This document shows, in pieces, positions 5,432 to 53,177 of a stretch of 64,000 nucleotides of DNA. Both the position numbers and the translations under genes were made by a program. The notes beneath the pieces are model-generated. The model searched no databases. It saw only the letters and a list, made by a program, of their open reading frames with translations, and was not told the origin of the DNA. The first letter of the stretch is position 1. Each line of letters opens with the position of its first letter. The DNA is taken from contig CAZABN010000002.1 of the NCBI GenBank assembly GCA_964483345.1, forward strand, positions 8,351 to 72,350, read 5' to 3'. This stretch comes from an uncultured Solirubrobacteraceae bacterium (GTDB lineage: Bacteria > Actinomycetota > Thermoleophilia > Solirubrobacterales > Solirubrobacteraceae).

Positions 5432-5489
5432 TCGAACAGACGTCGATCTTCGGTATGCGACCACCGGCCTTGCGGTTACGCTCCCGCGG

Positions 5490-5900
5490 ATGAGACGGGC
5501 GTTTGAGGTGCTTGCCTGCGCCGGCGTGCTCGCCTTCGGGCTGTCGGCCAGCGCTTCGGCGGCGGACGTCGTCGGTTCGACGGCGAACCTGCGTGCCGCG
5601 GCGTCGACCGTGATCAGCGCGGAGCTCAACCACGACGGCGCCGCCGCCTGCGGCAAGCTCTACGCGCCGCTCGCGACGACCGTCGACGGCAGGACCTGCG
5701 CGCAGCGCTGGGATGCCCGCAGCGCTCGTCTGCTCGCCAAGCCCGGCGGCGGCGCCGCGCTGCGCGCCGACCTGCGCGCGCTCGCGACCGCGCCCGTCAC
5801 GTTCCACGGCCTCTACGCGACGATCGCACTGCCACACCCGCTGCTCGGCGGCACGACACGCTTCTACTGGACCGCCGCCTGCTGGATGCTGATGAGCTGA
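5490..5900 (+). CDS. Secreted hypothetical protein
   Basis: Internal ATG gives MRRAFEVLACAGVLAFGLSASASA-ADV, a classic signal peptide with an AxA site. High GC3. No recognisable domain. Confidence 0.5.
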   Translation: MRRAFEVLACAGVLAFGLSASASAADVVGSTANLRAAASTVISAELNHDGAAACGKLYAPLATTVDGRTCAQRWDARSARLLAKPGGGAALRADLRALATAPVTFHGLYATIALPHPLLGGTTRFYWTAACWMLMS

Positions 5901-5972
5901 GCCGGTGTGGCGCTCCGTCGAGGCGCCGGCGGTGTGGTTCGCCAGCGGGCAGCGGTGGCGGAGCGGCGTCAA

Positions 5973-6044
5973 CTGCGGGACAGGGACTCGAACCCCAAAT
6001 TTCTGCTCCAGAGGCAGACGTGTTGCCGATTACACCATCCCGCA
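5973..6044 (-). tRNA. tRNA-Gln (anticodon CUG)
   Basis: Reverse complement reads TGCGGGA-TG-GTGT-AATCGGCA-ACAC-G-TCTGC-CTCTGGA-GCAGA-...-TTCGAGT-...-TCCCGCA-G. It has a perfect 7-bp acceptor stem with U1-A72 and G73 (Gln-like), a GTTCGAGTC T-loop and a C-U-CUG-G-A anticodon loop. No encoded CCA. Confidence 0.85.
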
Positions 6045-6125
6045 AAGCGTGGATCTGCGACCATCGCAGCCGTCGACGGTCCGCTTGGCCGCGACCGCTC
6101 GATTATAGATCGCCGGGTTGCCCGC

Positions 6126-25693: not shown

Positions 25694-25697
<4 letters not shown>
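25239..25697 (-). CDS. [NiFe]-hydrogenase maturation endopeptidase; non-canonical start (CTG?)
   Basis: [20 protein letters not shown]...WIVDAV...[11 protein letters not shown] matches the HybD/HoxW-type protease pattern (GIGN..DD, D, H). There is no ATG or GTG in frame for more than 100 codons upstream. CTG codons lie at 25697 (overlapping the hyhL TGA) and 25691. Confidence 0.75.
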
Positions 25698-26984
<1,287 letters not shown>

Positions 26985-26992
<8 letters not shown>

Positions 26993-27767
26993 CGCGGGAT
27001 CCCGCGCCCGCGAACGGCTCGGCGCTCGCGTTGAAGGTGTGGAAGAGGTGGTCGATCACGGTCTCGGTCGTGTCGAGGTCGCGCATCTGGCGCGTCAGCG
27101 CCGAGACGTTCGGCGTCTCCATCGGCCCGAAGCAGCCGTAGCAGCCGCGGTTGTAGGACGGGCAGATCGCGCCGCAGCCGGCGTGCGTGACCGGTCCGAG
27201 ACAGGGCGTGCCGTGGGCGACGGTCACGCACACCGTGCCGCGTCGCTTGCACTCGGTGCAGACGCTGGTCGTGGCGATCTGCGGGCGCCGCCCGGCCAGC
27301 TGGGCGCCGATCACCTCGAGCAGCTGGTGCTTGTCGATCGGGCAGCCGCGCAGCTCGAAGTCGACGGCGACGTGCTCGGAGATCGGCGTGGAGGTGGCGA
27401 GCGTCGAGATGTGCTCGGGCTGGGCGTAGACGAGCGCGACGAACTCGTCCACGTCGGCGACGTTGCGCAGCGCCTGGATCCCGCCCGCGGTGGCGCAGGC
27501 CCCGATCGTGACGAGGCGGCGCGAGGCGCTGCGAACCTTCTGGATGCGCTCGCAATCCTCCTCGGTGGTGATCGAGCCCTCGACCAGCGAGAGGTCGTAG
27601 GGACCACGGACGGTGGCGCTCGTGGCCTCCGGGAAGTAGGCGATCTCGACCTCGCCGGCGAGCGCCAGCAGCTCGTCCTCGCAATCGAGCAGCGAGAGCT
27701 GGCAGCCGTCGCAGGAGGAGAACTTCCAGACCGCGAGCTTTGGCTTGCGGCGCGTCGCCGTACTCAC
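26985..27767 (-). CDS. hyhS: [NiFe]-hydrogenase small subunit (delta; Nuo 20-kDa-like)
   Basis: [18 protein letters not shown]..., [12 protein letters not shown] and a distal Cys cluster ([11 protein letters not shown]...[15 protein letters not shown]...GCYGC). Confidence 0.9.
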
Positions 27768-28612
27768 AGCTCACGCACCCCCATCAGCGTCTCGAGCTTG
27801 TCGTAGCTGTAGACCGCGCCGTCGCGGCAGACGAGCGTCGGCCCGAGCTGGCAGTGCCCGCAGTGACCGACGGCGCAGCGCATGTTGCGCTCCATCGAGA
27901 GGTAGATGCGCTCGGGCGCGACACCGCGTTCGCGCAGCGCCACGACGCTGAAGTGCATCATCACCTCGGGACCGCAGACCAGCGCGATCACCGACTCCGG
28001 GTCGAACGGCGCGCCGTCGATCAGCTTCGGCACGACGCCGACCTTGCCCTCCCAGCCGCTCGCGGCCGCGTCGACGGTCACATCGACGTTGAGCTTGCCG
28101 CGCCGGCGCAGCGAATCGAGCTCATCGCGGAACAGCAGGTCTCCCGGGGTTCGCCCGCCGTAGAGCAGCGTCACCTCGGGGTAGTCCTCGCGGGCGAGCT
28201 CGAGCGCTTGGACCGCGGTGCGCAGCGGTGCGAGACCAACGCCGCCGGCGACCACGACGACGTCGTGGCCGGCCGCCTCGCGCACCGGCCAGGTGTTGCC
28301 GAACGGTCCGCGGACACCCAGCACGGCGCCGGGCTTCGCCTCGCAGATCGCGGCGCTGACCGCGCCGACGGCGCGGACGGTGTGCACGAGCAGGCCGTCG
28401 TCGGCGCCGGAGACCGAGATCGGAATCTCGCCGATGCCGAAGGCGTAGAGCATCGTGAACTGGCCTGGGCCGGGCGAGATGCCCTCGCCGGCGAGCGGCT
28501 CCAGCGACAGCGTCCAGGTGTCGGAGGTCTCGCGGCGCCGCTGCGTGACGCGGAACGGCCGCGGCACCATCGCGGCTGCCATGGGGGCTGCGAGCTCAGC
28601 GCTGGCCGACAT
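27764..28612 (-). CDS. hyhG: Hydrogenase gamma subunit: FAD/NAD(P)-binding oxidoreductase with C-terminal 2Fe-2S (AsrB-like)
   Basis: FNR-like fold ([20 protein letters not shown]) plus [15 protein letters not shown]. An alternative start lies at 28582. Confidence 0.88.
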
Positions 28613-29066
28613 GGCCGTAGACGTCGAGCAGACGCAGGCGCGTCCATTGCAGGCGCTCGATCAGCGTCTGGGCGAAGCGGGAGACGAGCTCGTAGCCGAG
28701 CTGCGGATCGGCGTCGCACTTGCCGCGCAGGCAGACGCCGTCGAACGCCGTCGCGCGTACCGCCGTCAGCGCGTGCGCGTCGAAATGCCAGCGATGGGGT
28801 TCGAACAGCCACGACCAGCCGAGCACGTCACCGGCCTCGAGCGTCTCGATCACCAGCGGCCCGCTGTTGGGGGCGTAGGCCTCGATCGCGATGCTGCCGT
28901 GGCGGAGGAGGTAGAAGGCGTCGGCCCGATCGCCCTCGCGGAAGATCAGCGCGCCGGGCTCGAACTGCACGTTCGAGCCGCATCCGGCGACCAGGTCGAT
29001 CGTCTCCGGGCGCAGGCCGGCGAAGAAGGGCGCGTCGGCCAGGATCTCGGCAAGCGTCGTCGTCAT
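28596..29066 (-). CDS. Stand-alone cyclic-nucleotide-binding (cNMP/CAP effector) domain protein
   Basis: 156 aa with FFAGLRPETIDLVAGCGSNVQFEPGALIFREGDRADAFYLLRHGSIAIE...GDVLGWSWL...RATA. No HTH follows. The ATG at 29066 overlaps the hyhB stop (ATGA). Confidence 0.8.
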   Translation of the reverse strand: MTTTLAEILADAPFFAGLRPETIDLVAGCGSNVQFEPGALIFREGDRADAFYLLRHGSIAIEAYAPNSGPLVIETLEAGDVLGWSWLFEPHRWHFDAHALTAVRATAFDGVCLRGKCDADPQLGYELVSRFAQTLIERLQWTRLRLLDVYGHVGQR

Positions 29067-30193
29067 ACAACCACCCCGTCGGTGTCGCGGATTGCAGCCA
29101 GCTCCTCGGTCACGTCGATGCCGACCGGGCACCACGCGATGCAGCGGCCGCAGCCGACGCAGCCGGAGCTGTCGAATTGGTCGTACCAGGTGCCGAACTT
29201 GTGCGTCAGCCACTGGCGGTAGCGCGAGCGTCCGGAGCGCCGGACGCTGCCGCCGTGCAGGTAGGAGTGCTCGACCGAGAAGCAGGTCTCCCAGACCCGC
29301 ACGCGCTCGGCCTCGGTGCCGGCCAGATCGCTGACGTCCTCCACGCTCGTGCAGAAACAGGTGGGGCAGACCATCGTGCAGTTGCCGCACGTCAGGCAGC
29401 GCTCGGCCACCTCGTCCCAGCGTGGATTCTCGAGGTTGCGCGCCAGCAGGTCGCGCAGGTCGCCGGACTCGACGGTGCGCGTCATCTTCGCGGCCGCTCC
29501 CTGCACCGCGGCGGCCGCCGCGTCGAGATCCACCGGCGCGGCGGCGCGTTGCGGCAGCTCCCGCAACAGCTCGGCGCCGCGATCGGATCCGGCGCGCGCG
29601 AGGAAGCGATGCTCGCCGTCGAGGATCTCGCTCAGCACGAGGTCGCAATCGCCGCGGATCTTTGGGCCGCCGCCCATCGAGACGCAGAAGCAGGTGTCGG
29701 CCGGTTCGAAGCAGTCCACGGCGACGATGAAGGCGCCGTCGCGGCGGACCGCGTAGTCGGCCTCCCGATACTCGCCGCCGATCAGCGCGCGGTCCTGGAT
29801 CGCGATCGCGCTCAGCTCGCAGCCGCGCACACCGAGCAGGGCCAGCGGCTGATGCTCGGTCTGGTCGGTCTCGAGCTCGAAGCCGTCGCCGTCGCGGCGC
29901 GCGCGCCAGATGCGCAGGCGCGCGGGCAGCAGGAACTGCTTCCACGAGTGCGGCCCGACGGCGTAGCCGAAGCGCGCCTCGTCCTCGCGGCGCGTCACGC
30001 GGTAGCGCCCCGGCGCCTGCTCGTCCCCGTAGCCGATCGGGAGCTCGGCGGCCGAGTGGAGGTCGTCGTAGACGATCGCGCCGTCACGCACCCTGGGACC
30101 GAGGACTCGGTAGCCACGCCCGCGCAGAGCCGAAACCAGCGCTTCGAGCGCGTCGGGTTCGAGAACGGCTGTGTCGAGCTCGGCCAATGCCAC
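29063..30193 (-). CDS. hyhB: Hydrogenase beta subunit: 4Fe-4S dicluster protein (AsrA-like)
   Basis: CLTCGNCTMVCPTCFC and CVGCGRCIAWCPVGI ferredoxin motifs. Start at GTG 30193 or TTG 30187, the latter 5 nt after an AGGGGAG SD. The first 32 codons of the listed ORF look spurious. Confidence 0.85.
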   Translation of the reverse strand: MALAELDTAVLEPDALEALVSALRGRGYRVLGPRVRDGAIVYDDLHSAAELPIGYGDEQAPGRYRVTRREDEARFGYAVGPHSWKQFLLPARLRIWRARRDGDGFELETDQTEHQPLALLGVRGCELSAIAIQDRALIGGEYREADYAVRRDGAFIVAVDCFEPADTCFCVSMGGGPKIRGDCDLVLSEILDGEHRFLARAGSDRGAELLRELPQRAAAPVDLDAAAAAVQGAAAKMTRTVESGDLRDLLARNLENPRWDEVAERCLTCGNCTMVCPTCFCTSVEDVSDLAGTEAERVRVWETCFSVEHSYLHGGSVRRSGRSRYRQWLTHKFGTWYDQFDSSGCVGCGRCIAWCPVGIDVTEELAAIRDTDGVVV

Positions 30194-30327
30194 TCCCCTG
30201 AGGTTGCCCGAGACTAGCGCAGGTTTGCATCCGTGCACAGCGCCCCGCGCGCTTCGGAAAGACCGCAGTGTTGAACGGCGGCGACGCAACGCTCATCAGT
30301 GCGGCTCGCCGCGCCGATGCTTGGTGT

Positions 30328-37523: not shown

Positions 37524-37579
37524 TGTCCATGCCGGAGGAGGGGTCTGGGTTCAGCACATATGTCCATGCCGGAGGAGGG
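37524..37579. repeat. 19-nt perfect direct repeat duplicating the tRNA-Met 3' end (att-like scar)
   Basis: tgtccatgccggaggaggg occurs at 37524-37542 and at 37561-37579, separated by 18 nt. The second copy is the last 13 nt of tRNA-Met plus 6 nt of 3' flank. Confidence 0.85.
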
Positions 37580-37640
37580 ACTCGAACCCCCGACACGCGG
37601 ATTATGATTCCGCTGCTCTAACCGACTGAGCTACTCCGGC
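37567..37640 (-). tRNA. tRNA with CAU anticodon (elongator tRNA-Met; tRNA-Ile2 not excluded)
   Basis: Reverse complement reads GCCGGAG-TA-GCTC-AGTCGGTTA-GAGC-A-GCGGA-ATCATAA-TCCGC-GTGTC-GGGGG-TTCGAGT-CCCTC-CTCCGGC-A. All stems are perfect. It is not initiator-like: G1-C72 is paired and the anticodon stem has no GGG/CCC. No encoded CCA. Confidence 0.88.
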
Positions 37641-42701: not shown

Positions 42702-44339
42702 TCAGCCGCTGCCGAGCTGCACCGCCTTGACCACCAGCAGCACCACCGAGACGACGAGGTAGCCGCGCAGCCCCAGCATCGCGGCCTTGCGGCCGGATGA
42801 CCAGACGGCGGGTTCGAGGAACGTCAGTTGCGGCATCGTCCACTGCGCCTTCGGGACGGTTGGGCCCTCGTCGATCACCGTCACCTCGCCGCCGCCGCGG
42901 CCGCTGCGGAGTGTCCAGGCGCCGAACGCCAGCAGCGCCGCCGCGAACGCCCCTCCACCGACCAGCGCGAACTGCGTGACATTCACCCTGGGAAAGACGG
43001 TGGTCGCCATCAGGATCAGCGAGAGCAGGACGAGCACCGCGACGATCACGGTCGCCAGGATGTTCAGCCAGGTCGGGTTGCGCCACGGTCCGAGCACCGC
43101 GCGGTCGTTGCACAACAGCAGCAGGAACACCGTCGCGCTCGGGAGCAGCACACCGGCCAGCGCCTGAACCGAGGTCGTGATCACGCCGAGCGGGGCCCCC
43201 GGGATCAGCACGATCGCGGCGGCGCCCGCGATCAGGCCGGCGAAGATCAGGTAGAAGGACTTGGCATCCGAGAAGCTGCGGTGCAGCGAGCTCTTCGTGC
43301 CGAACATGTCGCCGAAGGCGTAGCTCGTCGAGAGCGTCAGCGCGGCGGCGCCGATCAGCGAGGCGTTCAACAGGACGAGCGCAAAGAACGCTCCGCCAAC
43401 CGATCCCAGCTCGAGCTTGAGCCCGTTCGCGGTGCCGAGCGCGTTCGTGAAGTGGCCGTATAGCGGGGTGCCCTTGAACGCGAACGCCGAGACCGCGATC
43501 AGCGCGCCGGCGCCGATCACCACGACGACCGCGCCGATCCACGTGTCGAGGCGCTCGTAGTTGATCCAGCGCGGAGTGATCCGCTTGTCGATCACGTTGG
43601 ATTGCTGAAAGAACAGCTGCCACGGAGCGACGGTCGTGCCGACGATCGCGATGATCAGCAGGACCGAGGTCGAGTTGGCGCCGCCGGCGATCGAGGGGAC
43701 GAAGAAGTCATGCGCGACCGGGCCGATCTTCGGATGCGCCATGAAGAACAGCGGGATCGCCAGGAGGTTGGCGAACACGAACACGAACATCACGCGTTCC
43801 CAGCGGCGGAAGCTGCCGCTGGCGGTGATCGCGACGAGCAGTACGGCGGCGATCGGCACGGACACGAAGGCGGAGATCCCGAAGTAGGAAAGCGCGAGGC
43901 TGACGCCGATGAACTCGGTGACGATCGTCAGGAAGTTCAGCAGGAACAGGTCGCCGACCGAGAACCAGCCCCAGAAGCGCCCGAACCGCTCGTTGATCAG
44001 GCGTGCGTGCCCGACGCCTGTCACGGCGCCGAGGCGGACGACCATCTCCTGGTTGACGATCAGCACCGGGATCAGCAGCAGCAGCACCCACAGCAGGCTC
44101 GTGCCGTAGTTCTGGCCGGCCTGGGAGTAGGTGGCGACGCCGCCCGCGTCGTTGTCGCCGACCATCACGATCAGGCCCGGGCCGACGATCGCCAACAGCG
44201 CCAGCGCCCGCGCGCGCCAGCTGCGCCGCACCCCGGTGTCGTGCTGGCCGATCGTCCCGAAGGCGCCCTGGATATCGCCGACATGGGCGCTGTCGAGCAC
44301 GGCGCGCTCGCGCTCGGGCGTTGCCGTCATCCTGCTCAC
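42702..44339 (-). CDS. NRAMP/SLC11-family transporter with non-canonical (NRMT-like, probably Mg2+) binding-site residues and a C-terminal 2-TM extension
   Basis: NRAMP fold with GPGLIVMVGDNDAGGVATYSQAGQNYG, where canonical NRAMPs have DPGN. TM6 reads GTTVAPWQLFFQQS, where canonical is GA.VMPHNLYLHS. There are about 100 extra C-terminal residues. Confidence 0.88.
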   Translation of the reverse strand: MSRMTATPERERAVLDSAHVGDIQGAFGTIGQHDTGVRRSWRARALALLAIVGPGLIVMVGDNDAGGVATYSQAGQNYGTSLLWVLLLLIPVLIVNQEMVVRLGAVTGVGHARLINERFGRFWGWFSVGDLFLLNFLTIVTEFIGVSLALSYFGISAFVSVPIAAVLLVAITASGSFRRWERVMFVFVFANLLAIPLFFMAHPKIGPVAHDFFVPSIAGGANSTSVLLIIAIVGTTVAPWQLFFQQSNVIDKRITPRWINYERLDTWIGAVVVVIGAGALIAVSAFAFKGTPLYGHFTNALGTANGLKLELGSVGGAFFALVLLNASLIGAAALTLSTSYAFGDMFGTKSSLHRSFSDAKSFYLIFAGLIAGAAAIVLIPGAPLGVITTSVQALAGVLLPSATVFLLLLCNDRAVLGPWRNPTWLNILATVIVAVLVLLSLILMATTVFPRVNVTQFALVGGGAFAAALLAFGAWTLRSGRGGGEVTVIDEGPTVPKAQWTMPQLTFLEPAVWSSGRKAAMLGLRGYLVVSVVLLVVKAVQLGSG

Positions 44340-44542
44340 CTCCTTTCCGGGTCCGCTCCGTGGGTCGCGGGGCGGGCGCCGTGGAGGTCCCTCAGCCGGA
44401 TGTCAGGTGCTGACTCCAGGTGGGGACGCCGCAGCGCAGCGCCACGCGACCGCTACTTCGCGGGGGTTCGCCGTCTTCGTATCTGCTGGGGTCGTCCACG
44501 GTGTGAAGGTCCTGTCAAGTGCCCGATCCGGGCAGCAAGAGT

Positions 44543-45886
44543 CTACTCGCGAGCGAGCCCGTAGCGGCGCCGCCATTGCTCGGGCAGGGTCAGCTCGAGG
44601 ATGTCGTCGACCGAGACGACGCCGATCGGCCGGGCGTCGGCATCGACGACCGGAAGGGTGATCAGGTTGTAGTCGGTCATCAACCTCGCGACCTCCGGGA
44701 TCTCGGCCTCGGCGCCGACCGAGGGGGCGCTCGCGTCGGCGAGCGCGTCGAGCGCCTGGTCCGGTGAGGCGTGGATCAGCTGGCCGGTGGTGACAAGTCC
44801 GCTGAGCACGCCGCCGGCGTCTGTCAGCAGGATCGCGTGCAGGCTGTCCGCGGCGACGTCGTGCGCACGGGCGGCGGCGATCGCCGTCGCGACCGTGGCG
44901 TCGCGAGGCACCGCGACGAAGTCCGGGCTCATCACGCCGCCCGCGGTCGACGGGTTGTAACCGAGCAGACCCTTGATCTTGCGTTGCTTGGCAAGCGGCA
45001 TCAGGTCCAGCACCGGTAGCCGTCGCTCCTGCTTGATTTCGAGCAGCAGATCGGCGGCGTCGTCGCTCGCCATTCGCGCGAGCACCGCCGCGACCTCGCG
45101 GTCCGAGCGCTGATCGAGGAACTCGAGCTGGTGCTCGTCATCGAGCTCCTCGAAGACATCGGCCTCGAGCTCCTTGTCCTGCCCGACAGCCTCCAGGATC
45201 TCCTCCCCCTCCTCGTGGCTCGCGGCCTCGACCAGATCGGCGATCTGCGCCGGATGCAGCGACGCGATCCGCCGGTGGGCCAGCCGCAGGCGCGACGTCG
45301 GCACGTGCCCGACGAACGGTTCGAGCTGCGGCCACGGGACGAACGCCGGATGGGCGTCCTGATCTTCGCGCAGACGATGCGGCAGCAGCCGCCGCACGCG
45401 CGCGCCAAGGCTGGGGTCGATGCCCGCGACCCGCCAGGCGCCTTCCTGGTGTGTCAGCTCGACCTCACCGGCGCGCACGAGCCGCGCGGTGTTGACGTTG
45501 ATCAGGCTGCGTCCGAGCACGTCCGAGCGCAGCAGGATCTCGCCGGGCCGCCGTTCGAACTGGGCCAGGTTCAGTTTCGTCGTCGAGGTGTGGGCGCCGC
45601 CCGGCTCCAGGCGCGCAATGGCGTTCGCGGGGACGAACAGCAGGCGGCCGCCGATCGCGGCGCGAAGCCCGATCACCGGCGGCAGCGGGTCCGCGAGGTC
45701 GAGTCGCGCCACGAGGTCGTCCACGCGGCCAAGCCGCTCACCGGACGAGTCGAGCAGCGGGCTCCCCGCGAGCGAGGAGAGGTGGAGAACGCCGTCAGGC
45801 ATCGCCGTGCGCAACAGAGTAGTGGGTCGCGGGGTCGAACTGGTGTCGATCCCTGTGTCGCCGCCATGCCGCGCGGCGCGGGGCAC
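44543..45886 (-). CDS. Soluble PRC-barrel + MgtE_N + tandem CBS protein (MgtE cytosolic module with no membrane domain)
   Basis: PRC-like N-terminus (GERLGRVDDLVARLD...). MgtE_N (LHPAQIADLVEAASHEEGEEILEAV...ARMASDDAADLLLEI). Two CBS motifs (VMSPDFVAV..., ...LITLPVVDADARPIGVVSVDDIL). Ends with no TM helices. An alternative start lies at 45802. Confidence 0.85.
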   Translation of the reverse strand: MPRAARHGGDTGIDTSSTPRPTTLLRTAMPDGVLHLSSLAGSPLLDSSGERLGRVDDLVARLDLADPLPPVIGLRAAIGGRLLFVPANAIARLEPGGAHTSTTKLNLAQFERRPGEILLRSDVLGRSLINVNTARLVRAGEVELTHQEGAWRVAGIDPSLGARVRRLLPHRLREDQDAHPAFVPWPQLEPFVGHVPTSRLRLAHRRIASLHPAQIADLVEAASHEEGEEILEAVGQDKELEADVFEELDDEHQLEFLDQRSDREVAAVLARMASDDAADLLLEIKQERRLPVLDLMPLAKQRKIKGLLGYNPSTAGGVMSPDFVAVPRDATVATAIAAARAHDVAADSLHAILLTDAGGVLSGLVTTGQLIHASPDQALDALADASAPSVGAEAEIPEVARLMTDYNLITLPVVDADARPIGVVSVDDILELTLPEQWRRRYGLARE

Positions 45887-45913
45887 AACGCCCGGCCGCG
45901 CATGCCGTGTCCG

Positions 45914-48900
45914 TCAGCTACCCGGCGGGACGATCGTGAAGCGAAGTGACACCGGCGCCGACGGATGGCCGGTGAGGCCGGTCGCGCTCAGCTCCACGGC
46001 GTAGGTCCCGGCGGGGAGCCGGCCGAGCGACGTCTTGCCACCGAAGGCCAGCGCGTTGCCGCCGGCCTGCGCCCGGATCGTCAGCGTGCCGGCGGAGAGA
46101 CTGCGCGTGCAGCGCTGCGCCCTGGGTGCGGCCAGCGCCGGCGATACGCAGCGTCCACCGGCCTTGCGCCCGCCGGTCAGGCGGGCGAAGCTGAGTTCGA
46201 CCTGCGCGGCCTGGTCGAGCGAGAAGGAGAAGGTGGTGCCCAGCGGCAGGCGCGAGCGACGGGCCTTGCGCTCGAGCCATCTCGCCGCCGTCTCGTTCAG
46301 GCCGCTGATCGTCGGGCGCACCGCAACGATCGTGTAACTGGCGGTGAGCGCCGAGCTGACGCCGTTGCTGTCGGTGGCGATGACCGTGAAGCTGTGCGGG
46401 CCGGGAGCGGTGGTGGCGATCGAGGTGCCCGCGGCGTCCGGTCCCGTGCAGCTGGCGAGCGTCGCCGGCGCGCTCGCCGCGCAGCTGAAGGCGGCCGTCA
46501 GCGACTGTCCCCGCGCATAGACGCCACCGGCGGCGGGAGCGCCGATCGCAATCGTCGGCGGAGCGATGACGCTGTAGGTGGCGATCGTCGTAGTGGCGAA
46601 GCCGTTCGCGTCGGTGCTGGTGACGGCGAACTGGTGCACACCGACCGTGGAGGTGTTGATCGCCGCACCGTTGGCGACCGGCGCGGTGCAGCCGTTCGCG
46701 CCCGAGACGGAGGCGGCGCAGGCGTATGAGGCGATCACGCGTTCGCCCTCGGTGTAGGTCGCGCCGGATTGCGGGGAGCCGATCGCCTCGGTTGGCGCGT
46801 AGGCGAAGACGTCACCGGGGTTGGGCGGGCTCGCCCCCGCGAGGCCCGTGACCCGCACGTCGACCGATCCGGAACCCGCGGGGACCGTCGCGACCAGTTG
46901 CGTGGAGCTGAGGTCGGTTACCGACGAGGCGACTTCACCGCCGAACCAGACGGCGGTGTAAGGCGTGAAGCCGCTGCCGTCGACCGTGACCGTCGATCCC
47001 GGTCGCGCCTCGCCGCCCTGCAGCCCGGTGACCACCGGCTGCGCACCGATCGGCGTCGCGCTGGCGGCGCACAGTTGCGGCACGAGCCCGGTCGAGGATC
47101 CGTTGTCGGCGATCGGCGTGCCCAGTCCGGTCACCATGTCGTAGCCGGGGGTGGCGGGGTAGGCGCCGTAGGGGACGGTGCCGTTGAAGTAGCCGCTGTT
47201 GTCGCCGACCGTGACGTCGTTGAACGCGTCGGCGTGCTCGTCGCCGGCGGCGATCTCGTAGAGCAGAGGGTTCAGGAAGCCGAGCGGTGGCCCGGCCGTG
47301 CAGCCGCTGACCGCGCTGTCGCCCGCGAGCGGGGAGTCGGCGAGCGCCGCCACCGCCGCCCAGACCGGTGCAGACGAGCTGGTTCCGCCAAAGGCGGTCC
47401 ACGCGCCCTGGAAGTACGTCACGTAGCCGGTCTCGGTCGAGCCGTTCGCGGCCACGTCGGGCACCTCACGGCAGTACCGCGAGGTCTGGCCGCACGGTGC
47501 CCCGCTGGAGTAGCTGTTGAGCACCCCCGGGACCCCCGCGTCGATCTGGTAGGACGGCATCGCCCAGAGCGTCGAGATGCCGCCGCCGCTCGCGCCCCAG
47601 TAGATGCGGTTCCAGGAGGTCTCGCTCGGCGGTGGCCCGATCGCGTTGAGGTTCGTTCCGCCGACGGCTGTGGCGAGCGGCTGGCTTGCCGGATCGTCAA
47701 CGGCCAGCAGGGGCGCGTTGGGGTCACCCTGTTGCGCGATGTTGTTGAGGTTGTTGTTCCACTCGCTGGCGCAGGACTCCGCGCCCCGGTCTCCCGTCGA
47801 TGCGATGAAGCTCTCGCCCTGCGCCGCCGCCTCCTCGAGCAGTGTCTTCTCGCTCTGCGCAGCGGAGATGTCCTCCTGCTCGCACTCGCCCCACGAGTCG
47901 CTGATCACCTGAGCGTTGTCGGCCGCGACGATCCTGGCCAGGGTGTCGTAGCGCCCCATCAGCGTGTCGGGTCCCTGGTAGAGGTCGACGTTGGCCTCCG
48001 GCGCGAGCCCGATCAGGTCCTGCAGGTCGACCGCCGACTCGGCGGTCGAGATCTTGCTGCCGCCGCCGTCGACCAGCGGCTCGATCGTGATCTGGGCATT
48101 TGTGCCGTAGCACTGCTGGAATGTGGCGAGGTCGGTCGCCTCATCGGCCGAGCTCGCGTAGCTGTCGAGCTCGAGCAGTGCGACGGTCACGCCCTGGCCG
48201 AAATCGCCGTCGGCGTAGAGGTCGTCCATGCCGTACGCCTTGCCGATCTGGTCGATCGTGTAGACGTTCGAGTGGAGAGCCTCGAAGCCGCTGGCGCCCT
48301 GGCAGGGTGCCGGGCCGGCGCCGTTCGGGAACGATTGATCCGCCGCGGCGCGCGCGCGCGGCTTCCCCGCCCGTCTCGGTGCCGGCTTCAGCAGTGGGCG
48401 CACGAGGCCCTGCGGCTGTGCTTGCGGCACGTTGTCCAGGCCCAGCACGTTCTGCACGACCTTCCCGAGCACCGCCGGCATGCGCGGCGCCGCGGTGTTG
48501 GCGTAGAGGCGAACGCCTGAGTGCGTCCGGTAGCTGCGCAGATCGACGTCGAACGCGCGTGAGGCCTGTGACACGGTTGCCGAAACGGGGATCGAGAGCC
48601 CATTCGCGGCCAGCGTCCCTGGCTGCAGACCCTCGGCGCGCAGCGTGCTTCGGAGGGTCGCGACGCCGGCGGGGTCGGCGCCGAAGCGCGCGGCGAACTC
48701 GCCGACGGTCAGGTAGTGGTGGTAGCTCGTCGAGCCCGGGGTCGTCACCGCCGACACGAGCGCCGCGAGACCCGCGGGGTCGCGCGACTTCAGCACAACG
48801 GTCAGCGCGAGGCGGGTCCTCGGCGCGACGGCGCCGATCGCCGCAGCATCGGCGAGCGCCGGCGGCCGCGCGCCGACGACGACGCTGGACGGCGCGTCAC

Positions 48901-49012
48901 TGGCGCCGGCGCTGACGGCGAGGCCGATCAGCGCCAGCGACGCCGCGAGCGCGGCACGCCGAAAATCGCGCAGAACGCGGTTGGCCCGTTTGCTCGGTCT
49001 AAGCCACATCAA
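45914..49012 (-). CDS. Secreted S53 (sedolisin/kumamolisin-type) serine-carboxyl peptidase with IPT/TIG and repeated Ig-like C-terminal domains
   Basis: Signal peptide and a pro-kumamolisin activation region. Catalytic motifs ASTGDRGAE and GGTSSSAPVWAAVAAL. Then an IPT/TIG-like VVTGLQGGEARPGSTVTVDGSGF...VDVRV and two roughly 75-aa internal repeats (…YTEGERVIASYACAAS… / …YARGQSLTAAFSCAAS…). Confidence 0.85.
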   Translation of the reverse strand: MMWLRPSKRANRVLRDFRRAALAASLALIGLAVSAGASDAPSSVVVGARPPALADAAAIGAVAPRTRLALTVVLKSRDPAGLAALVSAVTTPGSTSYHHYLTVGEFAARFGADPAGVATLRSTLRAEGLQPGTLAANGLSIPVSATVSQASRAFDVDLRSYRTHSGVRLYANTAAPRMPAVLGKVVQNVLGLDNVPQAQPQGLVRPLLKPAPRRAGKPRARAAADQSFPNGAGPAPCQGASGFEALHSNVYTIDQIGKAYGMDDLYADGDFGQGVTVALLELDSYASSADEATDLATFQQCYGTNAQITIEPLVDGGGSKISTAESAVDLQDLIGLAPEANVDLYQGPDTLMGRYDTLARIVAADNAQVISDSWGECEQEDISAAQSEKTLLEEAAAQGESFIASTGDRGAESCASEWNNNLNNIAQQGDPNAPLLAVDDPASQPLATAVGGTNLNAIGPPPSETSWNRIYWGASGGGISTLWAMPSYQIDAGVPGVLNSYSSGAPCGQTSRYCREVPDVAANGSTETGYVTYFQGAWTAFGGTSSSAPVWAAVAALADSPLAGDSAVSGCTAGPPLGFLNPLLYEIAAGDEHADAFNDVTVGDNSGYFNGTVPYGAYPATPGYDMVTGLGTPIADNGSSTGLVPQLCAASATPIGAQPVVTGLQGGEARPGSTVTVDGSGFTPYTAVWFGGEVASSVTDLSSTQLVATVPAGSGSVDVRVTGLAGASPPNPGDVFAYAPTEAIGSPQSGATYTEGERVIASYACAASVSGANGCTAPVANGAAINTSTVGVHQFAVTSTDANGFATTTIATYSVIAPPTIAIGAPAAGGVYARGQSLTAAFSCAASAPATLASCTGPDAAGTSIATTAPGPHSFTVIATDSNGVSSALTASYTIVAVRPTISGLNETAARWLERKARRSRLPLGTTFSFSLDQAAQVELSFARLTGGRKAGGRCVSPALAAPRAQRCTRSLSAGTLTIRAQAGGNALAFGGKTSLGRLPAGTYAVELSATGLTGHPSAPVSLRFTIVPPGS

Positions 49013-49072: not shown

Positions 49073-50527
49073 ATGGCCCTGCGCGAGCACCTGGAGCGCC
49101 CGCACGGACGCGGCTCGCTGCCCGAGGGAGGCTACACCGGAGCGGCCGGCGGCGCGACGTGCGGCGATCTGGTGCGCATCTCGGTGGCGCTCGAGCGCGA
49201 CACCGTCGCGGCCGCCGCGTTCGATGCTCGTGGCTGCGGCAGCGCGATCGGCGCCGCGAGCGCCGCCGTGGCGCTGGTGGAGGGCCGGCCGCTGCTGGAC
49301 GCGGCGCGTGTCGGAGCCGATCAGATCGCGCGCGAGCTGGGCGGTCTGTCGCCGCCGAAACGGCACGCGGCCGAACTGGCGGCGGACGCGCTGCACCGCG
49401 CGCTTGGCGCCGCGGCCCGCGCCCAGGCCGCGCTCGCGCCGGCGCCCGGGCGGCTGCTCGTGGCGATGAGCGGCGGTGTTGACAGCGCCGTGGCGGCGGT
49501 GCTCGCCGGCTCGCGTGCCGTGGCCGTCACGCTCGAGCTGTGGACCGACTCCGAGAACGACGGCGAACGCAGCTGCTGCTCGCCGCAGGCGGTTCGCGGC
49601 GCGCGTGCGCTGGCCCATCGGCTCGGCCTGCCGCACCTCTCGCTCGACCTGCGCGCGGAGTTCCGTGCCGGCGTCGTCGAGCCGTGGCTCGCGCAGCACG
49701 CCGCGGGCGCGACGCCGAACCCGTGCGTTCGCTGCAACGGCGAGGTGCGGCTCGACGCGATGCTCGAGCTCGCCGGGCGGCTCGGCGCCGAGGCGCTGGT
49801 GACCGGCCACTACGCGCGCACCGGCGGCGGACTGCTGCGCGTCGCGGCCGACACGGACAAGGATCAGAGCTACATGCTCGCCGCGCTGGATCCGGCGGCG
49901 CTGCGGCGCATTCGCTTTCCGCTCGGTGAGCTTCGCAAGCCGCAGGTGCGGGCGCTCGCGCGCCGGGTGGGGCTGGCGGTCGCCGAGAAGCCCGACTCAC
50001 AGGATCTGTGCTTCCTCGCCGGAACGCGCCGCGGGGCCTTCCTCGCCCGCCACGGCGCACTCGGTGAGCGCCCCGGGGCGATCGTCGACGCCGATGGCCG
50101 CCGGATCGGCTCCCATCGCGGCGTCCACGGCTTCACCGTGGGGCAGCGTCGCGGTCTCGGCATCGGCGGCGGCACGCCCCTGTACGTGCTGGCGACGGAT
50201 GCAGATGCGGCCAGCGTGACGGTCGGCACCCGAGCGCAACTCGCGACCCACACGGTGACGCTCCGCGACGCCGTTCTGCACCGGACGGACTTCGATCGCG
50301 TGCGGCTACGCTACCGCCAGCTCCCGCTGCCCTGCACACCGCGGCACACCGACGGCGGCGGACTCGAGCTCGCGCTGGCGGCGCCGGCCTACGGCGTCGC
50401 GCCCGGGCAGCTCGCGTGCCTGATGGATGGCGAGCTGATCGTCGGTCACGCGACGATCGCGCGAGCGGCGGTGCGGAGCACCCGAAGCGCCTCCGGCGAC
50501 CGGGGCGAACAGCCGCGGCCTCGGTAA
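49073..50527 (+). CDS. mnmA: Fusion protein: IscU/NifU-N-like domain + tRNA 2-thiouridine(34) synthase MnmA
   Basis: The N-terminal 120 aa align to IscU (HLERPHGRGSL, GGATCGDLVRISV, ARGCGSAIGAAS, PPKRHAAELAADAL). Then come the MnmA PP-loop VAMSGGVDSAVAA, NPCVRCN and DSQDLCFL. It is one uninterrupted frame. The listed ORF start at 48716 is spurious because it overlaps the divergent peptidase gene. Confidence 0.88.
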   Translation: MALREHLERPHGRGSLPEGGYTGAAGGATCGDLVRISVALERDTVAAAAFDARGCGSAIGAASAAVALVEGRPLLDAARVGADQIARELGGLSPPKRHAAELAADALHRALGAAARAQAALAPAPGRLLVAMSGGVDSAVAAVLAGSRAVAVTLELWTDSENDGERSCCSPQAVRGARALAHRLGLPHLSLDLRAEFRAGVVEPWLAQHAAGATPNPCVRCNGEVRLDAMLELAGRLGAEALVTGHYARTGGGLLRVAADTDKDQSYMLAALDPAALRRIRFPLGELRKPQVRALARRVGLAVAEKPDSQDLCFLAGTRRGAFLARHGALGERPGAIVDADGRRIGSHRGVHGFTVGQRRGLGIGGGTPLYVLATDADAASVTVGTRAQLATHTVTLRDAVLHRTDFDRVRLRYRQLPLPCTPRHTDGGGLELALAAPAYGVAPGQLACLMDGELIVGHATIARAAVRSTRSASGDRGEQPRPR

Positions 50528-50537
50528 TCTCGGGTCC

Positions 50538-53177
50538 ATGACGTCGGACGAGATTCGCGAGCGCTTCCTGGCGTTCTTCGCCGAGCGCGGACATCTGCGC
50601 GTGCCGAGCGCATCGCTTGTGCCCGCCTCGAACGACCCCTCGGCGCTCTTTACGGTGGCCGGGATGCACCCGCTCAAACCCTACTTCCTCGGCCAGGAAC
50701 GCCCGCCGGCGACCCGTTTGACGAGTTGCCAGAAGGTCTTCCGGACGGTCGACCTCGATGTCGTCGGCACGACAGCCCGCCATCTGACGTTCTTCGAGAT
50801 GCTCGGCAACTTCTCGCTCGGCGACTACTTCAAGACCGAGGCGGTCGAGTTCGCATGGGAGCTCTCACGCGACGGCTACGGCTTTGCCGCCGAGGACATC
50901 TGGATCACGGTCTTCGAGGGCGACGAGGCGCTCGGGCTGGGCCCGGATGAGGAGGCGATCGAGGCCTGGCTGGCCGTCGGGGTCCCGCGCGAGCGGATCG
51001 TCGCCTGCCCGCGCAGCGAGAACTTCTGGCAGGCCGGGCCGACCGGGCCGTGCGGTCCCTGCTCGGAGCTCTACCTCGATCGCGGGCTTGCGTTCGGCAG
51101 CGCCGATGACCTTCCCGGCGGCGAGAACGCTCGCTTCCTCGAATACTGGAACCTCGTCTTCATGCAGTACGACCAGCAGCCGCCGGACACGCTGACGCCG
51201 CTGCCGGCGCGCAACATCGACACGGGGCTCGGGCTGAACCGGATGGCGGCGATCCTCCAGGACGTCCCGTCGGTGTTCGAGACGGACCAGTTCAGGCCGC
51301 TGATCGAGCTGGGCGAGAGCCTTTCCGGGCGAAGCTATGGCAGCGACGAGACGGCCGATCGCAGCCTGCGGGTGCTCGCGGACCACGCGCGGGGGATGAC
51401 CTTCCTGGTCGCCGACGGCGTCGTGCCCTCGAACAACGAGCGCGGCTATGTCCTGCGCCGTGTGATGCGCCGCGCCGTGCTGCACGGGCGCTCGCTCGGC
51501 TTCGAGCCGGGGTTCCTCGTGCGCTACGGCGAACTGGTGCGTGAGTTGATGGGCGGTGCCTACCCCGAGCTGAACGAGCACCGCGAGCAGATCGACGTCT
51601 GGCTCGCCTCGGAGGAGGAGCACTTCGGGCACACCCTCGAGCAGGGTCTCGTGGTGCTGCGCGAGCTGATCGAGCGTGCGCGCGAGGGCGACGATGTCGT
51701 GAACGGCGAGGACGCCTTCCGCCTGCACGACACCTTCGGCTTCCCGATCGAGCTGACTCGTGAACTCGTCGCGCAGGACGGGCTGAGCGTCGATCTGCCC
51801 GGGTTCGACGCGCTGATGTCAGAGCAGCGCGAGCGCAGCCGGATCGGTGAGGGGGGCGGCGAGCAGACGCTCGCGGGACGCGAGCGGGCGAGCGCCTTCG
51901 CCGGCGCGGCGGGCTTCACGACGCGCTTCGTCGGCTACGAGACGACCGAGCAGGCGACGACGGTCGGAGCGCTCGAGCGCAGCGACGGCCGCGTGCTGGT
52001 GAAGCTCGCGGACTCCCCGTTCTACGCCGCCGGTGGCGGCCAGATCTCCGACGTGGGCGTGATCGAGTGTGCGGAAGGCGACTGCCGCGCGCGCGTGGCC
52101 GAGGTCGTACGCCTCGGCGACGACCAGGCGATCTACGCGGTGCTGGACGAGGGGGATCTGCACGAGGGGGAGCGCGTCCACGCGCGGGTCGACCGTCTGA
52201 CCCGGCACGCAACCGAGTGCAACCACACGGCGACGCATCTGCTGCATGCGGCACTGCGCGCACGGCTCGGCAGCCATGTGCGCCAGGCCGGCTCCTACGT
52301 CGGCCCGGACAAGCTGCGCTTCGACTTCAACCACGGGCAGGCGATGTCGGCGGCGGAGTTGCGTGACGTCGAGGACCAGATCAACGCGTGGATCGTCGAG
52401 AACCACCCGGTGCGCCCGATCACCACGACGCTCCAGGAGGCGCGGGCATTGGGGGCGATGGCGCTCTTCGACGAGAAGTACGGCGAGGTCGTGCGCATGG
52501 TCGAGATCGGCGACGGCGAGTTCTCGCGCGAGCTGTGCGGCGGAACGCACGTGCGCTCGACCGCGGAGATCGGTGTCGTGCGCCTGCTCGGCGAGACCTC
52601 CAGCGCCGCCAATGTGCGCCGGATTGAGGCACTCAGCGGGCCGGCGGCGATCGCGGCGCTGCGCAGCCGCGGCGACGCGCTCGAGCAGATCGCAGGCGTG
52701 TTGCGGACGACGCCGGACGAGGCGCCCGGCGTGGTGGCGGCGCGCGAGGCGGAGCGGCGCGCGCTGGAGAAGGCGGCACGGACCGCCGCACCCGACGACG
52801 CGGTCGACGCCGGCGCGCTGGCCGGGTCCGCCGAGCTGATCGGCGACGTGCCGGCGGTCCTCGCCACGGTTGCGTTGGCCGATGCCAGGACGCTCCCCGA
52901 CGTCGTCGACCGCGTCCGCGGCAGGCTCGGCGCCGACGGTGTGATCGTCCTGGTGAGCGTCGCCGACGAGCGTGCCAACGTCGTCGTCAGCGTCGCGCCG
53001 GCGATCGTGGCGCGCGGCGTGCGCGCCGGCGAGATCGCGAAGATCGCGGCGGCGCCGCTCGGTGGTGGCGGCGGCGGGCGCGACACGCTCGCACAGGCCG
53101 GCGGCGGGCGGGTCGAGAACGTGGAGGCGGCGCTGGACGCGGCCCGCGCGGCGATCGCCGACGCCCTCGGGCGGTGA
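50538..53177 (+). CDS. alaS: Alanine--tRNA ligase
   Basis: FFAERGH..VPSASLVP..DPSALFTVAGM, TTARHLTFFEMLGNFSLGDYFK, editing-domain HTATHLLHAALR and CGGTHV motifs, and a C-terminal DHHA1-like domain. Confidence 0.95.
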   Translation: MTSDEIRERFLAFFAERGHLRVPSASLVPASNDPSALFTVAGMHPLKPYFLGQERPPATRLTSCQKVFRTVDLDVVGTTARHLTFFEMLGNFSLGDYFKTEAVEFAWELSRDGYGFAAEDIWITVFEGDEALGLGPDEEAIEAWLAVGVPRERIVACPRSENFWQAGPTGPCGPCSELYLDRGLAFGSADDLPGGENARFLEYWNLVFMQYDQQPPDTLTPLPARNIDTGLGLNRMAAILQDVPSVFETDQFRPLIELGESLSGRSYGSDETADRSLRVLADHARGMTFLVADGVVPSNNERGYVLRRVMRRAVLHGRSLGFEPGFLVRYGELVRELMGGAYPELNEHREQIDVWLASEEEHFGHTLEQGLVVLRELIERAREGDDVVNGEDAFRLHDTFGFPIELTRELVAQDGLSVDLPGFDALMSEQRERSRIGEGGGEQTLAGRERASAFAGAAGFTTRFVGYETTEQATTVGALERSDGRVLVKLADSPFYAAGGGQISDVGVIECAEGDCRARVAEVVRLGDDQAIYAVLDEGDLHEGERVHARVDRLTRHATECNHTATHLLHAALRARLGSHVRQAGSYVGPDKLRFDFNHGQAMSAAELRDVEDQINAWIVENHPVRPITTTLQEARALGAMALFDEKYGEVVRMVEIGDGEFSRELCGGTHVRSTAEIGVVRLLGETSSAANVRRIEALSGPAAIAALRSRGDALEQIAGVLRTTPDEAPGVVAAREAERRALEKAARTAAPDDAVDAGALAGSAELIGDVPAVLATVALADARTLPDVVDRVRGRLGADGVIVLVSVADERANVVVSVAPAIVARGVRAGEIAKIAAAPLGGGGGGRDTLAQAGGGRVENVEAALDAARAAIADALGR

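Follow-up and report, generated by a model that had tools for sequence, protein, structure and literature searches.

C-type MnmA, the usual MnmA of Actinobacteria, requires a [4Fe-4S] cluster, and in vitro the T. thermophilus enzyme accepts sulfur straight from IscS or SufS (PMC7025502). The route by which sulfur reaches MnmA is still debated, as is the choice between a [4Fe-4S] cluster and a protein persulfide (PMC11784392, PMC8053098, PMC13066941). In C. perfringens the genes form a co-regulated, unfused iscS-iscU-trmU cluster (cpe1785-1783; PMC2940859), and in M. tuberculosis, which belongs to the later-branching Actinobacteria, iscS and trmU have been proposed to form one operon (PMC8300815). 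In the scaffold ISCU, the Cys that follows the ligand His is the persulfide receptor, and the catalytic Cys of NFS1 reaches the metal by ligand exchange (PMC8924461).

Here we describe a gene in which an IscU-like domain and a C-type MnmA are read as one frame. It lies on contig CAZABN010000002.1 (GCA_964483345.1) of an uncultured Solirubrobacteraceae bacterium, of which a stretch of 64,000 nt, hereafter the window, was analysed. The host is a soil actinobacterium.

49073..50527, + strand: whole gene, IscU-like domain plus C-type MnmA; 484 aa plus stop, a single frame in relatives
49085..49408, + strand: IscU/NifU_N-like domain, aa 5-112 by Pfam; the folded domain covers about aa 1-118
49427..49453, + strand: linker from the last IscU helix to the first MnmA strand, aa 119-127; AF2 pLDDT at least 96
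49451..50458, + strand: MnmA proper, with HUP aa 127-316, PRC-barrel aa 323-385 and C-terminal barrel aa 409-462

The ORF opens with ATG and has zero internal stops. Its start was placed at 49073 because the homologues in an alignment of relatives begin at the same position, with Met or Val; a longer, GTG-started frame from 48716 is unsupported. No Shine-Dalgarno sequence or promoter was obvious upstream of 49073, and scanning the surroundings of the gene for promoters and terminators detected nothing. A sequence-only reading of this DNA had placed both domains in one polypeptide, and Pfam agrees: NifU_N (PF01592) covers aa 5-112 with 77.6 bits against a cut-off of 22, which removes the objection that the N-domain might not match NifU_N, and tRNA_Me_trans (PF03054) covers aa 127-316, accompanied by the M and C domains PF20259 and PF20258. 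Of the 120 protein clusters nearest to it (68-100% identity), 119 contain both Pfam domains.

The nearest solved relatives of the N-domain, by sequence as well as by fold, are the IscU chains of IscS-IscU complexes, 4EB5_C and 3LVL_A. PDB IscU sequences match it at E 5e-17, and its AF2 model superposes on 4EB5_C with an rmsd of 1.2 A (Foldseek). Compared with scaffolds of the IscU and clostridial-archaeal NifU type, namely those of A. fulgidus (4EB5), Methanothrix (7C8M) and E. coli (3LVL) and human ISCU, the fold is the same (rmsd 1.2-2.0 A, 30-35% identity), and the domain keeps the Cys of the first and second ligand positions, the Asp, the His, the N-terminal H..P..G motif and an 'LSPPK' that resembles LPPVK. 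It differs in having Ala for the third Cys, which in these scaffolds is both cluster ligand and persulfide receptor, and in being covalently attached to its client enzyme, whereas they are free proteins.

49160..49168, + strand: C30-G31-D32, first Cys ligand and Asp ligand positions (E. coli IscU C37/D39; ISCU C35/D37)
49235..49237, + strand: C55 (GCGS), second Cys ligand position (IscU C63; ISCU C61), invariant
49364..49369, + strand: H98-A99 (KRHAAEL), His ligand kept (IscU H105) and Ala for the third Cys (IscU C106; ISCU C104)

The equivalents of C30, D32, C55 and H98 bind Fe2+/Zn2+ in ISCU (PMC8924461), and these four residues are invariant throughout Thermoleophilia and Rubrobacteraceae; of 120 relatives, the 112 whose sequences extend over the position all keep C30 and D32, and the others are incomplete there. 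That the CGD and GCGS cysteines and the His persist, and that the third Cys has become Ala, had been noticed before, and both points stand, as A99 falls exactly on the third-ligand Cys when the window sequence KRHAAELAADAL is aligned with KMHCSNLAADAL of A. fulgidus 4EB5. Among the 120 clusters of relatives residue 99 is Ala in 100, Gly in 18, Thr in one and Cys in none, and no other conserved Cys was found in the N-domain of these relatives; in Thermoleophilia, the window protein included, no compensating Cys was found anywhere in the N-domain. The Rubrobacteraceae proteins likewise read H-A at the position of the His and third Cys. The third Cys moves about in relatives, appearing as H-S-C, as H-A-A-x-L-C or, in Rubrobacteraceae, as C-x-x-C, the last in 116 of 120 clusters of that family. 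The former description of a partly degenerate scaffold is correct as to the loss of the third Cys and needs one correction: the lost residue is specifically the persulfide receptor of ISCU, and all four Fe/Zn ligands are invariant.

As for the family, the best-scoring model for the N-domain is a clostridial NifU model, and both equivalog scores lie far under their cut-offs (IscU TIGR01999, 57 bits against 192.4; NifU TIGR03419, 71.2 against 187.9). SufU, a zinc-dependent IscU-fold sulfurtransferase, offers a precedent for persulfide relay via the metal site in place of scaffolding; it keeps three Cys and is without the His. The N-domain matches IscU sequences of the PDB far better than SufU sequences (E 5e-17 against 3e-6), and an identity as SufU was rejected, TIGR01994 reaching 31.4 bits against a cut-off of 92.5 over aa 4-79 only.

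The remainder of the protein is a full MnmA.

49469..49486, + strand: PP-loop SGGVDS for ATP binding and U34 adenylation, aa 133-138; invariant, aligns with the E. coli MnmA PP-loop
49574..49579, + strand: C168-C169 (SCCS), CC motif of C-type MnmA; invariant, loop pLDDT 67 (PMC7025502)
49724..49735, + strand: C218-x-x-C221 (NPCVRCN), two of three putative [4Fe-4S] ligands; invariant (PMC7025502)
50009..50011, + strand: C313 (DSQDLCF), putative third cluster ligand or catalytic Cys; invariant, aligns with DSTGICF of E. coli

The MnmA equivalogs NF001138 (320.5 bits, cut-off 284) and TIGR00420 (261.4 bits, cut-off 236.95; both NCBIfam) span aa 127-462, and Foldseek aligns this part with 2HMA and 2DET at TM 0.83. 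NPCVRCN aligns with NPDILCN of E. coli MnmA, and the pattern CC-CxxC-C, in place of C-DxxC-C, is invariant in 64 fusions. Judged by these motifs the MnmA part is C-type, and [4Fe-4S] binding and s2U34 activity are predicted for it. The CxxC assignment of the sequence-only reading is thus upheld, C168/C169, C218/C221 and C313 all being present, and the weight it gave to the type is not, as the C-type is ordinary for Actinobacteria (PMC7025502). The T. thermophilus enzyme (Shigi et al. 2020, PMC7025502) resembles the window protein in PP-loop, CC, CxxC, distal Cys and three-domain architecture; the window protein differs by the added N-terminal IscU-fold domain of 120 aa, and IscU or NifU is not mentioned in that account. 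In solved MnmA structures no N-terminal IscU domain was found (Foldseek, best TMq 0.64). The spacing from the His to the PP-loop is constant in Thermoleophilia proteins (34-36 aa), and AF2 gives a pTM of 0.88 both for the window protein and for one Rubrobacteraceae orthologue, a value which suggests that the two modules are packed in a defined way.

The fusion is not a rare one. In genomes that represent species, relatives of the N-domain are encoded at 341 or more loci, and the fusion was seen in about 240 protein clusters that span two actinobacterial classes, Thermoleophilia and Rubrobacteria. For the genome scan an alignment of 13 diverse N-domain sequences proved too variable, and a narrower one returned Thermoleophilia only; the distant fusion clade was assigned to Rubrobacteraceae via protein search. 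Eighty Thermoleophilia species genomes were fetched from the 341 or more loci, and 71 of them carry the uninterrupted fusion frame with all motifs. The N-domain (dN/dS 0.14-0.45) is as constrained as the MnmA part (0.17-0.54) and is under purifying selection, and GC3 is 0.89 and 0.88 in the two parts, respectively.

The surroundings of the gene are also conserved, in the order hisS-aspS-[fusion]-alaS-ruvX-mltG.

50538..53177, + strand: alaS, 10 nt downstream of the fusion gene

The arrangement hisS-aspS...mnmA...alaS-ruvX-mltG is an ancient one, common to Bacillus too. A thioredoxin-fold gene conserved upstream in relatives is without a Cys motif and absent from the window, and was left out as a member of the system. 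An Rfam scan of the window returned two tRNAs only. In Rubrobacteraceae a gene for a NifS/IscS-like cysteine desulfurase ends 1 nt inside the start codon of the fusion gene, and the two are translationally coupled; a stand-alone relative with Ala after the His also directly follows a NifS-like gene. A search of the 64-kb window, and of the 6 kb to either side of the fusion at each of the 80 Thermoleophilia loci, found no cysteine desulfurase gene.

The Rubrobacteraceae pair matches the C. perfringens cluster in its three functions and in their order, and differs from it in that iscU and mnmA are one gene, in Thermoleophilia as well, and that the IscU part is without the third Cys; in the lineage of the window, moreover, the desulfurase gene no longer lies next to the fusion. 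The dedicated desulfurase-MnmA pairs B. subtilis YrvO-MnmA (PMC13066941) and M. tuberculosis iscS-trmU (PMC8300815) would share with the window protein a shortened sulfur supply without a Tus relay, and they have no IscU-like module between desulfurase and MnmA; the B. subtilis MnmA is furthermore D-type, whereas that of the window is C-type. From gene order, as in the Rubrobacteraceae overlap and the C. perfringens cluster, and from domain similarity we infer that the fusion derived from a known operon of the clostridial iscS-iscU-mnmA type. In this scheme iscU would have joined mnmA in an ancestor of Rubrobacteria and Thermoleophilia, on a path from iscS-iscU-mnmA (Clostridia) to iscS-[iscU'::mnmA] (Rubrobacteria), then to [iscU'::mnmA] alone (Thermoleophilia) and to iscS-mnmA without IscU (mycobacteria), along which a general scaffold would have become a client-specific adaptor and then been lost.

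Based on residues and gene order we propose, with a probability of about 0.5, that the N-domain is a desulfurase-docking and sulfur-relay module and not an autonomous scaffold. That the receptor Cys is absent while the four Fe/Zn ligands are invariant speaks against an ordinary scaffold and in favour of docking or relay, and the wandering third Cys of the relatives is easier to understand as a relay thiol than as a cluster ligand at a fixed position. As the Cys that would receive persulfide and complete the site is lost, the N-domain is most likely unable to build [2Fe-2S] clusters alone. The protein is a genuine two-module enzyme, an IscU-fold N-terminus of ~120 residues ahead of a C-type MnmA of ~360 residues, with an IscU-type mononuclear Fe/Zn site probably kept by C30, D32, C55 and H98. 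The N-domain would offer a group-I (NifS/IscS-type) cysteine desulfurase a docking site built into the MnmA protein itself, and the mobile persulfide Cys loop of the desulfurase may bind the metal site in the manner of NFS1 on ISCU. Sulfur would then pass to the attached MnmA instead of to the absent receptor Cys, either the free iron of the MnmA cluster or the flexible CC loop being the candidate acceptor, and U34 of tRNA-Glu, -Gln and -Lys would be thiolated following adenylation at the PP-loop. The idea that the domain delivers persulfide or a cluster, already voiced in the sequence-only reading, gains real support from the translational coupling of the Rubrobacteraceae fusion to a desulfurase gene. 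Against a relay, the N-domain has two Cys only, so that an internal persulfide acceptor is not obvious, and it also counts that no desulfurase gene was found near the Thermoleophilia fusions or elsewhere in the window. The M. tuberculosis iscS-trmU pair is not known to include an IscU domain, and the module would therefore be dispensable for the chemistry.

It is conceivable, though we consider it doubtful, that the N-domain has remained a scaffold or carrier of Fe-S clusters, one dedicated to MnmA that loads or repairs its labile [4Fe-4S] cluster. The cluster would be held by C30, C55 and H98, with D32 optional, and one more ligand would be supplied in trans, whether by a loop Cys of the desulfurase, by a second subunit or by the CC loop of MnmA. 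Such sharing is reportedly seen in the A. fulgidus IscS-IscU structure, where IscU and a Cys of IscS hold a [2Fe-2S] cluster jointly. Every ligand other than the third Cys is invariant, D32 and H98 included, the Rubrobacteraceae have their replacement Cys, and the confident packing of the domains would suit transfer in cis; the reliance on SUF for general Fe-S assembly in Actinobacteria, however, counts against a scaffold, as do the Thermoleophilia N-domains without any compensating Cys. The cluster that C-type MnmA needs is a further point in its favour, and so is the CC loop, which is invariant, predicted with low confidence and of no known role in vitro; yet the CC motif is not an adaptation specific to the fusion, because it is common to unfused C-type MnmAs (PMC7025502), and the Cys that was lost is the very persulfide receptor of ISCU-type scaffolds (PMC8924461). 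A self-maturing Fe-S enzyme, in which an MnmA thiol, for instance of the CC loop, would complete the IscU-type site in cis, a desulfurase would build or re-sulfurate the [4Fe-4S] cluster and this cluster would donate the sulfur of s2U34, either sacrificially or with regeneration, strikes us as improbable.

We likewise think it unlikely that the N-domain is a degenerate remnant with a non-sulfur role, be it folding or stability, oligomerisation, tRNA binding, or Fe/Zn sensing that tunes MnmA activity. The key Cys is gone, the desulfurase gene is missing nearby in Thermoleophilia, the IscU and NifU equivalog scores are low, and other Actinobacteria are not known to have the IscU domain; a mere structural remnant, however, would not need four metal ligands that are strictly invariant over deep divergence, nor does it sit well with a dN/dS as low as that of the catalytic part or with the translational coupling to the desulfurase gene in Rubrobacteraceae. 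The fusion might, finally, be an artefact, of assembly or sequencing or of an internal start at M132 that leaves the N-domain untranslated, and the in-frame Met ahead of the PP-loop, the missing Shine-Dalgarno sequence and promoter, and the relative P0093, called as 352 aa without the N-domain, could be read in this way. It is effectively refuted: the same frame, free of any missed stop or frameshift, recurs in independent species genomes (71/80) and in two classes, the N-domain is under purifying selection with a high in-frame GC3, the linker length is constant and the homologues share the start position.

Literature searches found no published description of an MnmA-IscU or MnmA-NifU fusion, in agreement with the sequence-only reading, which knew of none. 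The natural fusion and the dedicated Rubrobacteraceae desulfurase make up a compact two-protein system for testing the sulfur route, in which the role of an IscU metal site without the receptor Cys is directly testable. The fusion is annotated everywhere as plain MnmA, a label by which hundreds of genomes overlook the extra domain.

The gene at window positions 49073-50527 on the plus strand is a single open frame of 484 codons with an ATG start. Pfam places NifU_N (PF01592) on aa 5-112, hereafter the N-domain (77.6 bits; cut-off 22), and the three MnmA domains PF03054, PF20259 and PF20258 on aa 127-462, over which the NCBIfam MnmA equivalog NF001138 scores 320.5 bits (cut-off 284), so that both domains reside in one polypeptide as the sequence-only reading had it. 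The residues named in that reading are all found in the fusion:

C30: CGD motif, N-domain, confirmed
C55: GCGS motif, N-domain, confirmed
H98-A99: KRHAAEL motif, N-domain, confirmed
C168/C169: SCCS motif, MnmA part, present
C218/C221: NPCVRCN motif, MnmA part, confirmed
C313: DSQDLCF motif, MnmA part, confirmed

Aligned with E. coli MnmA, NPCVRCN pairs with NPDILCN and DSQDLCF with DSTGICF. The C-type MnmA motif to which attention had been drawn is thus present (C168/C169, C218/C221, C313) but not noteworthy. This type, defined by CC-CxxC-C and holding a [4Fe-4S] cluster via the CxxC...C cysteines, is typical of Actinobacteria, thermophiles and Cyanobacteria (PMC7025502), and is therefore expected here and no finding in itself. 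Genes for tRNA-Gln(CTG) and tRNA-Met(CAT) lie at window 5972-6045 and 37567-37640 (minus strand). The anticodon of this tRNA-Gln is CUG, and it is not the U34 isoacceptor modified by MnmA.

That the fusion is an artefact is excluded by its recurrence in relatives, uniform codon bias, dN/dS and a shared start. Of the 120 protein clusters nearest to the window protein (68-100% identity), 119 have both Pfam domains, and most are ~460-490 aa long. With one genome scanned for each species, at least 341 loci encode an N-domain relative, and among the best 80 of these the same unbroken frame is found in 71, which share C-D-C-H-(A/T), SCCS, PCxxCN and [DE]SQDLCF, with the PP-loop ~133-141 residues in; the remaining nine run off short contigs, carry an apparent frameshift or miss one motif match. 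A sequencing error hiding a stop, offered earlier as a refutation, is thereby dismissed. An untranslated N-domain, also offered, fails as well, as dN/dS against ten relatives is 0.14-0.45 in this domain (0.17-0.54 in the MnmA part), indicating that it is translated and constrained, and the homologues begin at the same position with Met or Val. GC3 is 0.89 in the N-domain half and 0.88 in the MnmA half. In two metagenome gene calls, P0165 (1060 aa) and P0211 (582 aa), the fusion gene runs on into alaS as one product; these merged products are likely frameshift or read-through artefacts of those assemblies.

In a PDB sequence search the N-domain aligns with IscU proteins, among them A. fulgidus IscU (4EB5, E 5e-17), Methanothrix IscU, human ISCU and E. 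coli IscU. The proposed replacement of the third IscU cysteine by alanine is borne out by the 4EB5 alignment, which pairs A99 precisely with the Cys that is the third ligand ('KMHCSNLAADAL' vs 'KRHAAELAADAL'). C30, D32, C55 and H98 are kept in all of the 120 close relatives covering the column, whereas position 99 is Ala in 100, Gly in 18, Thr in one and never Cys, and no further conserved Cys was found in the N-domain of these relatives. An alignment of 64 sequences from Thermoleophilia and Rubrobacteraceae (~41% identity) shows no variation at H6, C30, D32, C55, H98, D105 and H108 of the N-domain, nor in the PP-loop, C168, C169, C218, C221 and C313 of the MnmA part. In ISCU the Fe2+/Zn2+ ligands are Cys35, Asp37, Cys61 and His103, Cys104 is the free persulfide receptor, and the NFS1 catalytic Cys joins the metal through exchange with Cys35 (PMC8924461). 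The window N-domain has exactly the four metal-ligand residues, and what it lacks is exactly the receptor Cys.

We propose, with a probability of about one half, that the N-domain serves to dock a desulfurase and relay its sulfur, as its metal ligands are invariant, it resembles IscU chains from IscS-IscU complexes and the fusion gene is coupled in an operon to a desulfurase in Rubrobacteraceae. A NifS/IscS-type enzyme would bring its mobile Cys loop to the IscU-type metal site of the domain; the domain, having no internal receptor Cys, would route the sulfur to the attached MnmA, at the free iron of the cluster or at the CC loop. T. thermophilus MnmA can take up sulfur directly from IscS or SufS in vitro (PMC7025502). 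The main rival, that the N-domain remains able to bind or build a cluster, one ligand of which would come in trans, and so serves in cis to mature MnmA, we regard as rather unlikely. The placement of the third thiol varies among relatives, being H-S-C or H-A-A-x-L-C in stand-alone proteins, C-x-x-C in Rubrobacteraceae fusions and absent in Thermoleophilia, and such variation is more in keeping with a thiol that relays sulfur than with a cluster ligand held at one site. A remnant of purely structural or regulatory function is more doubtful still, given the invariant metal ligands. A weak point of the docking proposal is that M. tuberculosis MnmA is not known to carry an IscU-like domain, while its trmU has been proposed in the literature to form an operon with iscS; an IscU-like module would therefore help the chemistry without being required for it.

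The C-x-x-C is found in 116 of the 120 Rubrobacteraceae fusion clusters listed. In these fusions (P0229, P0301-P0419; locus L084 2012-3475) the extra Cys lies three residues past the second ligand Cys (G-C-A-A-C-I-A-A), at the start of a helix predicted by AlphaFold2, and the position is Ala, Thr or Met in Thermoleophilia. Among small stand-alone IscU-like proteins near the fusion family (P0420-P0458; L002 6805-8399) the third Cys appears as canonical H-C, H-S-C or H-A-A-x-L-C, or is missing altogether (P0252). At the level of 50% identity cluster representatives, the nearest N-domain relatives almost all lack a Cys after the His, and canonical H-C IscU proteins turn up only at ~35-40% identity. 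The representative search also returned two other IscU fusions, P0247 (443 aa) and P0194 (472 aa), one a three-Cys NifU_N with a thioredoxin-reductase-like pyridine-nucleotide disulphide oxidoreductase and the other three tandem NifU_N.

AlphaFold2 with the family alignment models the window protein at mean pLDDT 89.3 and pTM 0.88, with the nine-residue linker (aa 119-127) at pLDDT of at least 96 and low confidence in the CC loop, the C313 loop and the C-terminal tail. A Rubrobacteraceae orthologue, whose linker is longer and modelled with low confidence, likewise reaches pTM 0.88, and the models suggest that the two modules are packed in a defined way. By Foldseek the MnmA part matches 2HMA and 2DET (TM 0.83) and the N-domain matches IscU chains from IscS-IscU complexes (4EB5_C, rmsd 1.2 A; also 3LVL_A and human ISCU). 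None of the solved chains matched spans both.

The window fusion belongs to a clade of Solirubrobacterales and Thermoleophilaceae (class Thermoleophilia). A distant clade of fusions is Rubrobacteraceae (N-domain identity ~43%), in which each of the 120 clusters listed combines the two domains, at a length of 480-495 aa in nearly every case; in the additional fusions P0203 and P0241 Asn replaces Asp. A typical Thermoleophilia-type fragment on a 2.3 kb contig (L075, DATNKQ010000267.1) belongs to a MAG whose label is Thermoanaerobaculia, which probably reflects misbinning rather than a true occurrence beyond Actinomycetota.

The window order is hisS, aspS, three inserted genes on the minus strand, fusion, alaS, ruvX, mltG and pilus genes, and hisS-(aspS)-fusion-alaS-mltG is kept in nearly all Thermoleophilia loci examined. 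The insertion between aspS and the fusion gene is:

42702-49012, minus strand: Nramp transporter, MgtE_N/CBS protein and 1032-aa sedolisin-like peptidase

The 64 kb window has no cysteine desulfurase gene, and none was found up to 6 kb from the fusion in any of the Thermoleophilia loci examined. In Rubrobacteraceae a group-I desulfurase gene (best model clostridial-type NifS, 434-447 bits, under cut-off) lies immediately upstream, its TGA stop sharing one base with the fusion ATG, and a few genes further on come alaS, ruvX and mltG. The stand-alone two-Cys relative P0252 likewise immediately follows a NifS-like gene. In Clostridium perfringens an Rrf2 regulator, iscS, iscU and trmU are adjacent and co-regulated (PMC2940859), and the best-scoring model for the N-domain is clostridial NifU. 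The simplest history is that iscU fused to mnmA inside an iscS-iscU-trmU-type operon, the third Cys was lost afterwards, and the desulfurase gene then parted from the fusion in Thermoleophilia; the protein is a Rosetta-stone fusion out of a known operon.

Full-text literature searches found no published description of an MnmA-IscU/NifU fusion, in keeping with the earlier statement that none was known, and it is unmentioned in Shigi et al. (PMC7025502) and in a 2026 review. Public databases that give these proteins a name use MnmA or tRNA-specific 2-thiouridylase, and one truncated fragment is labelled Fe-S scaffold protein. The fusion is widespread and unstudied, with an instructive degenerate site.

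Several minor features were observed. The aspS-fusion gap holds one small gene in most relatives, and the three-gene insertion is common to the window and its nearest relative (L012); the sedolisin-like peptidase has a pro-kumamolisin activation domain and a TIG domain. Directly 5' of the fusion gene, 65 of 80 Thermoleophilia loci conserve a membrane-anchored protein (L004 ~5200-5946; L044 5027-5917) with a low-complexity linker and a weak thioredoxin-fold C-terminus without CxxC, for which tblastn (E up to 1) gave no match in the window. Downstream of P0252 lies a predicted membrane protein without a recorded Pfam match in the precomputed table. Elsewhere, window 25694-30292 (minus strand) holds a gene cluster resembling soluble [NiFe]-hydrogenase, with a large subunit, an Oxidored_q6 small subunit, an FAD/NAD-binding Fe-S subunit and a 4Fe-4S dicluster protein.
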